The translations under genes were made by a program, and so were the position numbers. 32,000 bases of DNA, taken from positions 128,133 through 160,132 of the forward strand of contig NZ_NVQC01000016.1 of the NCBI RefSeq assembly GCF_003044035.1, given 5' to 3'. The stretch comes from Candidatus Methylomirabilis limnetica (GTDB lineage: Bacteria; Methylomirabilota; Methylomirabilia; Methylomirabilales; Methylomirabilaceae). A model generated the notes under the pieces. It ran no database searches and was not told the origin of the DNA. It was given only the letters and a program-made list of their open reading frames with translations. Shown in pieces: positions 16,425 to 17,874 of this stretch. Position 1 is the stretch's first letter. Every line of letters begins with the position of its first letter.

Positions 16425-17796
16425 GAAGATCCGGCACATCCACTTCGTAGGGATTGGGGGAGTCGGGATGAGCGGGATTGCCGAAGTTCTCTACAATCTT
16501 GGCTATCAGGTTAGCGGCTCCGACCTGAAGGTGTCAGAGCATGCCCTTCGTCTCCGGGAGTTGGGTGTGACCGTACAGATCGGCCACGATCCCGCCCATG
16601 TAATGGATGCCGACGTCGTGGTCCGCTCCTCGGCGGTCTCTCCAGAGAATCCCGAGATTGTCGCGGCGAAGGTCCATGCTATCCCGGTCATTCAGCGGGC
16701 TGAGATGCTGGCCGAGCTGATGCGGATGAAGAAGTATGGCGTGGCCGTTGCCGGCACCCATGGGAAGACCACGACAACCTCCATGGTGGCCACGGTCCTG
16801 GCCAAGGCTGGCCTTGACCCTACCGTGGTCATCGGGGGCAAGCTGGATGCGCTTGGCAGCAATGCGAAGCTCGGGCAGGGCGAGTTCATGGTCGCGGAGG
16901 CCGATGAGAGCGACGGCTCTTTTCTCAAGCTGGCTCCCACCATCGCTGTGGTGACCACCATCGACGCCGAGCACCTCGATTACTACCGCGACCTGCAACA
17001 GATCAAGGAGACGTTCCTCGAATTCATCAATAAAGTCCCCTTCTACGGCTCCGCTATTCTGTGTCTCGATCAAGAAGAGATCCGAGACCTGTTGCCCAGG
17101 GTGCAGAAACGCATTGTCTCGTATGCCTGTAACGCGCGGGCTGATTTGACGGCAGAGGGGGTCTCGCTCACCGGACTCAGCTCCATCTTCAAGGTGAGGT
17201 TCAGGGGAGAGCCTCTGGGGGAGGTGCAACTCAGGGTTCCCGGGTTGCACAATGTGTCGAATGCGTTGGCAGCGATAGCAGTAGGCCTCGAGCTGGAGAT
17301 CGAATTTGCCGAGATCCGGACGGCGCTCGGGGAGTTCTCCGGTGTCGCTCGGCGCTTCCAGGTGAGGGGGAGTCCTCAGGACATCATGGTGGTGGACGAC
17401 TACGCCCATCACCCGGCAGAGATCCAGGCCACGCTACAGGCGGCCAGGGCTGGATTTGAGCGGCGACTGATCGCCGTCTTCCAGCCGCATCGTTATACCA
17501 GGACCTTCAGGCTCCTCCCCGAGTTTGCTTCCGCTTTCGATCTGGCCGATCAGGTGATCATCACCGAGATCTACCCGGCGGGAGAGGCGCCGATTGTCGG
17601 CGTCTCCGGCAGACAGCTTGCGGACGTGATTGCCAGCCGGAGAGGGCCAAAGGTCCTGTACGTGGAACGCAAGGAGGAGATCCCGGATCGGGTCGTTGAT
17701 CTGGCCCGTCCTGGCGACCTGGTCATCACTATGGGCGCGGGAGACATCTGGAAGGCCAGCGAGCAGATTGTCGGCCGACTGCAAGAAAGGGTATAG
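16417..17796 (+). CDS. murC: UDP-N-acetylmuramate--L-alanine ligase
   Basis: [22 protein letters not shown] N-terminus, [11 protein letters not shown] P-loop. The track ORF start at 16345 lies in the repeat core. Confidence 0.9.
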   Translation: [459 protein letters not shown]

Positions 17797-17874
17797 GGTA
17801 GAGGGTGGAGGGTATAGGGTTTAGGAAAAGCACTGATGCTGAGGTTTATACCCTACACCCTAAACCCTATACCC
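17789..17874 (+). repeat. Inverted heptamer arrays: GGGTNNA x5 (17789-17825), 21-nt loop, TNNACCC x4 (17847-17874)
   Basis: Direct reading. The arms are complementary unit for unit. The murC TAG (17794-17796) lies in the first unit junction. Confidence 0.9.

Follow-up and report, generated by a model that had tools for sequence, protein, structure and literature searches.

Based on an analysis of a 32-kb window of Candidatus Methylomirabilis (NC10), the whole stretch of DNA considered here, which was read from sequence, and on comparisons to loci of relatives and of other bacteria (designated by L and a number), we find that the spacer between murC and murB is occupied by two opposed period-7 arrays, GGGTNNA units followed by TNNACCC units, that are predicted to fold into a stable hairpin. 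We give an even chance to the following explanation, which is the one we favour. The arrays are driven by slippage, they are tolerated only at cistron boundaries, and their constant cores would form a generic intercistronic mRNA hairpin.

The G-rich arm (17789-17825, + strand, as for the other arrays of the window below) consists of five GGGTNNA units plus GG (GGGTATA GGGTAGA GGGTGGA GGGTATA GGGTTTA GG). It is followed by a 21-nt loop, AAAAGCACTGATGCTGAGGTT (17826-17846), and by the C-rich arm of four TNNACCC units (TATACCC TACACCC TAAACCC TATACCC, 17847-17874), with a TAA reaching to 17877. An earlier note on this stretch had given the units of both arms, the loop length and the coordinates, all of which are exact to the base. 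Tandem Repeats Finder assigns period 7 to both arms, and a repeat finder reports arms of 29 nt that are 90% complementary. The murC stop, TAG at 17794-17796, lies within the first repeat unit, read as AGG GTA TAG (Arg-Val-stop), and with the TAGs at 17799 and 17822 the array holds this codon in three different frames, as had been noticed before; a fourth TAG stands at 17815. On the other side of the hairpin, the murB ribosome-binding site AGGAG (17890-17894) and ATG (17895) are located 15 nt past its base. An alternative in-frame murB ATG is present at 17880, and gene calls in other assemblies fall at the equivalents of both 17895 and 17880. Six assemblies, obtained from different samples and with different assemblers, agree at 100% identity over the junction, which is therefore no assembly artefact, an origin that is also ruled out by orthologous arrays in metagenome-assembled genomes (MAGs) at NCBI. 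With six assemblies in agreement, the concern voiced in the earlier note that the array might be absent on resequencing does not apply.

Folding of 17775-17895 as RNA, a check suggested by the same note, yields -55.4 kcal/mol, as compared to -32.0 +/- 3.5 for shuffled sequences (z -6.66; 0 of 200 shuffles as good), with about 33 predicted pairs that are broken at the variable positions. The hairpin is similarly evident on the opposite strand (z -7.6) and as single-stranded DNA (z -7.2). The arms had been called complementary unit for unit except at the variable positions; the complementarity holds for the constant core only, and pairing at the variable positions resembles that of random redraws. 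When the NN dinucleotides were randomly redrawn and refolded, the folds were equally stable, i.e. there is no signal of compensatory covariation between the arms. Since the variable positions pair no better than such redraws, the hairpin is a generic one, in which any G-array pairs with any C-array. It is not a member of a known RNA family: Rfam returned 0 matches at the gathering score for the hairpin, and the sub-threshold matches are to microRNA-precursor hairpin models only (18-24 bits vs cut-offs of 64-135).

A very stable predicted hairpin that begins at a stop codon invites comparison to an intrinsic (Rho-independent) terminator or an attenuator between murC and murB, a function that we consider extremely unlikely. 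The hairpin is followed by CCCTAACTATGAGGG and hence by no U-tract, for which reason it does not qualify as an intrinsic terminator, and a terminator and promoter scan predicted neither type of signal at the site. Moreover, murB follows 15 nt downstream with its own ribosome-binding site in a conserved operon, and the stem is identical when read from the opposite strand.

The G-rich arm also fits the canonical G-quadruplex (G4) motif G3N4 x4, with a G4Hunter score of 1.46, and heptamer arrays make up four of the six canonical G4 motifs of the 32-kb window (G4Hunter 1.3-2.1). A switch can be envisaged in which the G-arm (G3N4 x5) would adopt a G4 in RNA or in displaced DNA, the C-arm would compete for it, and translation, RNA decay or replication at this site would be modulated by the balance between G4 and hairpin. 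Compatible with this are the four to five units, which satisfy the four-tract requirement, and the retention of GGG tracts in one-armed arrays (L207 and L209; 3016-3056 and 11441-11472 in the window). Related repeat units of Xanthomonas and Nostoc form G4s, and hairpin-G4 competition has been raised for their inverted pairs (Rehm et al., PMC4692102), while a G4-hairpin-duplex switch was proposed in E. coli (Kaplan et al., PMC5100583). We nonetheless regard such a switch as quite unlikely. Given the usual stability of G4s, the predicted duplex of -55 kcal/mol is expected, where the C-arm is present, to beat a G4 of three tetrads with loops of 4 nt. Furthermore, a G4 leaves unexplained why T and A are constant around each GGG, and the GTTTCGA, TGAAGGY and RTCAGCN families, which display the same architecture, cannot form a G4.

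The murC-murB element is one of many. The pattern GGGTNNAGGGTNNAGGGT, allowing at most one mismatch, matches the window 11 times vs 0.02 expected (3025-3049, 7627-7644, 11441-11472, 17789-17820 and 17850-17874), and this search bears out the recurrences that had been reported at 2988-3056, 7627-7647 and 11441-11472. In a lag scan requiring at least 16 of 21 matches, in which periods 4-6, 8, 9, 11 and 12 were compared with 7, the window contains 10 period-7 arrays vs none at the other periods. Seven congeners, 124 kb in total, contain 25 vs at most two at any other period. Close relatives were gathered by protein search and by exact-protein look-ups; the MurC homologues with 87-92% identity come from sources that name them Ca. 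Methylomirabilis or Methylomirabilota, and a MurC scan of metagenomes gave relatives at 67% identity or less only. In the 74% relative L214 the lag scan detected no arrays, and in 80 dcw (division and cell wall) loci of distant bacteria, 1 Mb in total, period 7 is no commoner than other periods. Arrays of period 7 characterise the genus Methylomirabilis as a whole. A chance origin is ruled out by the shuffle folds, the lag scan and the excess of pattern matches.

The placement of the arrays follows the gene boundaries. Window and congeners together comprise 156 kb, 92% of it coding, within an overall sample of about 180 kb, which is not a complete genome. Of the 35 arrays in the 156 kb, 24 occupy intergenic DNA and 11 are found at most 150 nt from a gene end, which leaves 0 deep in genes. 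Placement in this sample is therefore not random, random placement being the outcome that the earlier note had named as fatal to its proposal, and the claim that no copy sits inside a conserved coding core is sustained. Several unit families coexist in the window (GGGTNNA, TGAAGGY, GTTTCGA/CCGGAAC, CGAAACY and GCCAGGC), and RTCAGCN, GTTCCAA and GTGAACC are found in relatives. The arrays had been described as a repeat family in the dcw operon, which is too narrow, as the same GGGTNNA architecture separates dprA from topA in Ca. M. oxygeniifera (L077) and also occurs between type IV pilus genes of a further Methylomirabilota MAG (L022). A feature specific to dcw clusters is ruled out by these arrays in other operons and by the lack of a period-7 excess in the 1 Mb of distant dcw loci.

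To follow the junction among relatives, as had also been recommended in that note, a tree built from FtsW, MurG and MurC was compared with the junction sequences; depending on the relative, the pair is kept, shortened, one-armed or replaced. The GGGTNNA pair is found at murC-murB in both major clades (the window, L208, L212 and L213) and is therefore ancestral. L216 and L215, at 97% and 99% MurC identity, respectively, have kept the loop, which is different in more distant species, but carry four rather than five G-units and differ in their NN positions. The L212 junction has expanded to 19 G-units, and the C-arm has been lost in L207 and L209. At the equivalent positions of L210 (4186-4320) and L211 (11375-11468), a different junction with RTCAGCN heptamers (GCTGATCGCTT) is observed along with a different MurB N-terminus. 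Because L210 and L211 are not sisters and share this other cassette, recombination between Methylomirabilis species is implied, and the sequences suggest that the junction cassette has been exchanged between them. Other junctions vary in a similar manner. Between murE and the alpha/beta-hydrolase gene (abh), the window has a G-arm only, L207 a C-arm only, and L208, L209 and L211 both arms. At mraY-murD and ddl-mraY, whole hairpins are distributed as a mosaic among species, which fits one early gain followed by losses. Throughout, the constant part is AGGGT/ACCCT, while the NN positions and the loops turn over.

According to the explanation that we favour, convergent simple-sequence-repeat arrays (G-arm 5', C-arm 3') would gain and lose whole 7-nt units through replication slippage, an origin proposed because near-identical strains differ in unit number, and would persist only where coding constraint is absent, i.e. 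in spacers and dispensable gene tails. Because each G-array abuts or overruns the 5' open reading frame (ORF), the murC stop falls in the first unit, and the C-arm comes to its end shortly before the ribosome-binding site of murB. Ancestral to the genus, the element is also labile, with arms that are shortened, expanded (to 19 units), lost singly or replaced. The dcw genes share one strand and either overlap or are separated by short spacers, and we assume a single read-through mRNA. In such a transcript the AGGGU and ACCCU cores could pair in any register into an imperfect helix of ~33 bp, in which the variable positions would form 2x2 internal loops, and folding would leave no more than about 15-20 nt between the murC stop and the ribosome-binding site of murB. 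The most likely effect would be that of a passive intercistronic structure. By analogy to REP (repetitive extragenic palindromic) and Correia elements, it might serve as a barrier to 3'-exonucleases or as an RNase III target that sets segment stability. Since several species lack the hairpin, any benefit must be small.

Several observations weigh against this explanation. The hairpin is dispensable: the C-arm is missing from L207 and L209, the junction of L210 and L211 has a repeat of another type, and L214 has no arrays. Of the five inverted pairs in the window, just two, at murC-murB and at about 300-445, are significantly more stable than shuffles, and the other three (11430-11515, 12600-12720 and 16295-16420) are not (z -0.1 to -1.6). 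Pure slippage leaves unexplained the constant AGGGT core beside NN turnover, the retention of that core in one-armed arrays, and an AAGACA flank, described below, at four unrelated array boundaries. The array statistics rest on about 180 kb and no complete genome, and each functional step of the hairpin is one that we infer.

Dispensability is also what would be expected if the arrays and their inverted pairing were neutral debris, left by a lineage-specific 7-nt slippage and template-switch bias and tolerated in spacers with no effect on expression, an alternative that we take to be possible at a rather low probability. Sister species have lost arms or whole hairpins repeatedly, and spacers of 1-13 nt serve equally well there. 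The NN positions are without covariation, most window pairs are degenerate, and beyond the repeat core there is neither a conserved sequence-specific RNA motif nor an Rfam family match; in addition, Rehm et al. (PMC4692102) could assign no function to their repeats. On the other hand, the pair at the junction is retained in lineages with a MurC only 79-81% identical to that of the window, though long palindromes are deletion-prone. The AGGGT/ACCCT core has stayed constant despite the turnover of NN and loops, and the arrays share a G-first polarity and a proximity to the 5' ORF across phyla among the matches listed (see below), both of which point to some constraint.

One form that such constraint might take is recognition by a single-strand nucleic-acid-binding protein, e.g. 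of the cold-shock-domain or S1 type, for which the array would offer one AGGGU per 7 nt. The constant core with its two free positions resembles a recognition motif, and one-armed arrays keep the core. The consensus AGGGAGGGA was reportedly obtained for E. coli CspC in a study by SELEX (systematic evolution of ligands by exponential enrichment). Binding of S1, Csp or CsrA has been proposed for the TAACTGA arrays of Beggiatoaceae (MacGregor 2015, PMC4679880). We judge a binding array to be very unlikely, as several unrelated heptamer units occur with the same architecture in the same genome, the C-arm would sequester the sites, and no candidate protein was identified.

The flank of the arrays is a further feature that extends beyond the repeats. 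The decamer AAGACAGGGT has six matches in 177 kb of Methylomirabilis DNA, all at an outer array boundary, where ~0.34 would be expected, and 0 matches in 1 Mb of distant loci. The sites are 7621-7630 in the window, 11364 in L207, 1213 and 11364 in L208, 3810 in L209 and 2227 in L215 (minus strand), and they represent four unrelated junction types, namely the 3' ends of murE, murC and murF and, as the reverse-strand match, the far end of the hairpin in L215. Because AAGACA directly precedes the first GGGT, MurE, MurC and the MurF-type ligase end in Asp-Arg-Val-stop (-DRV-stop). Slippage alone predicts no shared non-repeat flank, and an origin resembling that of REPINs (REP doublets forming hairpins) or by gene conversion therefore stays alive. 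A conserved terminus that is universal across phyla was considered as well and rejected, since the flanks elsewhere consist of degenerate units.

The flank could belong to a mobile palindrome similar to REPINs or to MITEs (miniature transposable elements with inverted repeats), with the defined termini AAGACA-GGGTATAGGGT ... ACCCTATACCC-TGTCTT, which would insert at gene ends with its own stop and depend for its spread on a trans-acting transposase or on gene conversion. In agreement with this proposal, GGGTATA is the usual outermost unit (14 of about 50 first units), loops vary as they do in REPINs (PMC3337134), presence and absence form a mosaic between species, and the non-sister L210 and L211 share another cassette. 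We still deem it unlikely. A comparison of filled and empty sites reveals no target-site duplication and no clean empty-site footprint, loops and inner units are unconserved between loci, and one ancient gain plus losses explains the phylogeny. Furthermore, the array flanks of other phyla fade into degenerate units, no transposase was seen in about 180 kb, and Rehm et al. (PMC4692102) found no association with mobile elements.

A scan of species-representative genomes for (GGGTNNA)x3GGGT gave at least 120 loci (L007-L126) from many phyla. Acidobacteriota, Planctomycetota, Cyanobacteriota, Bacteroidota, Chloroflexota, Nitrospirota and candidate-phyla-radiation lineages are among the matches listed, along with others, and the statements that follow all refer to these matches. 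Among the units, GGGTTCA is the most frequent by a wide margin. G-first inverted pairs hold about 40% of the arrays, and inverted partners at most 250 nt apart are G-first in 38 cases vs C-first in 8, most of the C-first cases being junctions between adjacent hairpins; chains of several hairpins are seen at L012 and L044. In a G-first pair, the G-array follows a stop and the C-array precedes a start, with genes on either strand. Single intergenic arrays are nearer the ORF located 5' of the G strand in 43 cases vs 17, on crude ORF calls. Because long spurious ORFs read through arrays, the figure of 77 arrays 'inside genes' is distrusted and the intergenic subset alone was used, and GGGTTTA matches at MAG contig ends, which may represent eukaryotic telomere contamination, were left uncounted. 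The G-first polarity may result from selection against G-rich, Shine-Dalgarno-like sequence beside ribosome-binding sites. In a more ambitious interpretation, the elements of all these phyla would be self-propagating 'cistron-junction' palindromes with a universal G-first polarity, bearing the termini AAGACA-GGGT ... ACCC-TGTCTT in Methylomirabilis. They would overwrite gene ends with their own stop, be propagated by an enzyme resembling a REP-associated tyrosine transposase (RAYT) or by a template-switching polymerase, and act on polycistronic mRNA as G4/hairpin switches. We hold this interpretation to be improbable, both as regards the cross-phylum palindromes and as regards their mode of spread and action.

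Within the window, the arrays have shaped the ends and the apparent starts of genes. The stop codon is provided by the first unit (Arg-Val-stop) in murC, murE and mraZ and in the genes upstream of the arrays in L077 and L022. The gene ending AGGGTATAG is also present at mraZ (2987-2995) and murE (7626-7634) and, outside the window, at dprA in L077 and at a T2SSE-family ATPase gene in L022. Rarity of TAG as the cause of array-supplied stops was ruled out, as other window genes end in TAG too. In L209, L210 and L211, MurC is longer by 6-15 residues, reading continuing into the junction repeat, which consists of GGGTNNA units in L209 and of the RTCAGCN cassette in L210 and L211. The MurG tail is array-encoded, and the protein varies from 378 to 403 residues among species. 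At 16270-16424 in the window, the last ~50 murG codons are heptamer arrays and the tail differs wholly among species, yet murG ends at the same TAA, 8 nt inside murC, in seven of nine species, and earlier in L213 and L214. As regards starts, the longest-ORF starts of murD (12647/12722), murB (17805/17880/17895) and rsmH (2996/3050) extend back into arrays; judging from relatives and from where the ribosome-binding sites lie, the downstream starts are favoured, i.e. murD 12722, murB 17895 and rsmH 3050.

The individual arrays of the window are as follows. Between mraZ and rsmH, a GGGTNNA G-arm without a partner (2988-3056) gives the mraZ stop through GGGTATAG, and its run GGGTGCGGGGGGTTCGGGGTACAGGGTGCAGGGTATGGGGG reaches into the likely rsmH start, ATG 3050. 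After murE, a G-arm only (7627-7647; GGGTATA GGGTGAA GGGTATT) is preceded by AAGACA and gives the murE stop. The ddl-mraY spacer (11441-11505) holds four G units plus GGGG (11441-11472), a loop and a C-arm remnant, CCTAAACCCTCTAA (11492-11505), and the fold of this pair is not significant (z -0.6). In the mraY-murD spacer (12612-12706), another heptamer family has adopted the same architecture, with GTTTCGA x4, a loop and CGAAAC/CCGGAAC x4. The arrays of the murG C-terminal tail (16300-16414) comprise GCCAGGC and GGTTYCA, followed by CGAAACY x6, directly before the murC start. Finally, a palindromic element of 179 nt (283-461) has 43-nt arms that are 81% complementary and contain TGAAGGY / RCCTTCA heptamers (z -4.6). 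It occupies the spacer that separates a deoxynucleoside-kinase gene from panB, its arms run past the TGAAGGY heptamers into unique sequence (GACCGATTGCAACTACTCAG...), and it looks more MITE-like than the GGGTNNA copies.

The surrounding locus is a complete dcw cluster on the + strand, as assigned by Pfam, in the order mraZ, rsmH, ftsL, ftsI, murE, alpha/beta hydrolase, murF-type ligase, ddl, mraY, murD, ftsW, murG, murC, murB, ftsQ, ftsA and ftsZ, with the deoxynucleoside-kinase gene, panB and panC upstream. Five of the six spacers of at least 50 nt in this cluster are largely heptamer arrays, none is present where genes overlap, and all array copies of the window are located between same-strand genes. 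Some neighbouring features were noted as well. An alpha/beta-hydrolase gene lies between murE and the murF-type ligase, and ddl upstream of mraY (7658-11435); the order murE, hydrolase, ligase, ddl, mraY is constant in all relative loci that cover it, including the 74% relative L214. Downstream of ftsZ, an ORF of 64 residues (22179-22373) is Cys-rich (CPHC...CPNC, zinc-ribbon-like) and without a Pfam match, and its conservation extends to the five further relatives compared there, again including L214. In the window, the ftsA-ftsZ spacer (20910-20948) is 39 nt long and includes a conserved TCCAACATCCAA motif. In the 99% strain L215, ~60 nt are additionally inserted in this spacer (5256-5353), and heptamer hairpins of other families occur there in L212 (14584-14711) and L213 (14460-14608). 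Further downstream, the window contains an inverted repeat with 41-nt arms, 73% complementary, and a 6-nt loop (30195-30282), and an 18-nt tandem repeat of 3.1 copies (30357-30411).

In conclusion, our analysis extends the class of G-rich heptamer repeats, often convergent pairs set against stop codons, to the NC10 phylum, and the Methylomirabilis series, from 100% to 74% MurC identity, shows how such elements evolve. The modes seen are gain and loss of whole units, fast NN turnover beside a fixed core, loss of one or the other arm independently in different species, and replacement of the junction cassette. For annotation it is relevant that the arrays supply stops, make variable C-terminal tails (MurG, MurC) and mislead start calls (murD, murB, rsmH). 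The finding reveals no new mechanism.

Comparison to known systems places the element as follows. Heptanucleotides are the most abundant long simple-sequence repeats, for which polymerase slippage with a 7-nt preference was proposed, according to Mrazek 2007 as cited in PMC4679880 and PMC4692102. A lineage-specific and mostly non-coding period-7 excess is common to the repeats described there, to the TAACTGA arrays of Beggiatoaceae and to the arrays described here. The TAACTGA arrays consist of direct repeats placed immediately upstream of start codons and include a single indirect repeat (MacGregor 2015, PMC4679880), whereas the Methylomirabilis arrays begin at stop codons and often form inverted pairs. 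The likeness to STRR (short tandemly repeated repetitive) sequences and to REP elements that had been drawn in the earlier note is fair as an analogy. In heterocystous cyanobacteria, STRR units such as CCCCAGT, TTGGTCA and CAACAGT are likewise tandem 7-nt units, intergenic and dispersed through the genome; the differences are the unit GGGTNNA, the Methylomirabilis host and the inverted pairing, which is no defining STRR feature. The REP elements of E. coli are intercistronic mRNA stabilisers. With REP elements and REPINs (Bertels & Rainey 2011, PMC3116915; PMC3337134) the present pairs share two inverted copies of a conserved sequence around a variable spacer, which give a long hairpin between genes, and the conserved outer terminus AAGACA is a REPIN-like hint. 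In contrast to them, the arms here are tandem heptamer arrays and not imperfect palindromes of 20-40 nt, the copies differ in unit number and NN rather than being near-identical, and no RAYT transposase is known for heptamer arrays or was seen in about 180 kb. Correia elements and other MITEs are similar in being palindromes of ~90-180 nt that would place duplexes of RNase III size in polycistronic mRNA. They differ from the present elements, which have no target-site duplication in filled vs empty sites, loops that are unrelated between loci and arms built of repeats.

The closest system is that of Rehm et al. 2015 (PLoS One, PMC4692102), who described G-rich heptameric repeats, GGGAATC in Xanthomonas and GGGGA(C/T)T in Nostoc. 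The view that nothing similar had been described is thus mistaken as to the class of element, although our literature search found no paper mentioning such repeats in Methylomirabilis. The published repeats show an excess of heptamers, a non-coding bias and under-representation between divergent ORFs; four units are preferred, and G4 formation was demonstrated in vitro by circular dichroism. There are 70-75 inverted pairs per Xanthomonas genome, always convergent, and arrays lie 'almost exclusively' nearer the 5' neighbouring ORF in any orientation, stop-codon overlap included. Closely related species differ in the length and sequence of their arrays, whereas the type, single or paired, is retained (PMC4692102). 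The arrays described here agree in having a tandem 7-nt unit with a G3-4 tract, a period-7 excess (in a sample of about 180 kb), an intergenic bias and co-directional ORFs. They likewise have the G-rich strand closest to the 5' ORF with the stop codon overlapped, inverted pairs that are convergent (all Methylomirabilis pairs being G-first), and unit number and sequence that vary among close relatives while the type is preserved. Arrays of four to five units are typical here, with a range of 2-19 in a small sample. They depart from the Xanthomonas and Nostoc repeats in the unit GGGTNNA with its two free positions, in arrays that are heterogeneous rather than near-perfect, and in the coexistence of several non-G-rich heptamer families with the same architecture; G4 formation, seen there by circular dichroism, is predicted here from the motif. 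The host belongs to Methylomirabilota, not to Gammaproteobacteria or Cyanobacteria. By its sequence features, the murC-murB element is a member of the published G-rich heptameric class, to which it adds a new unit and a new phylum.

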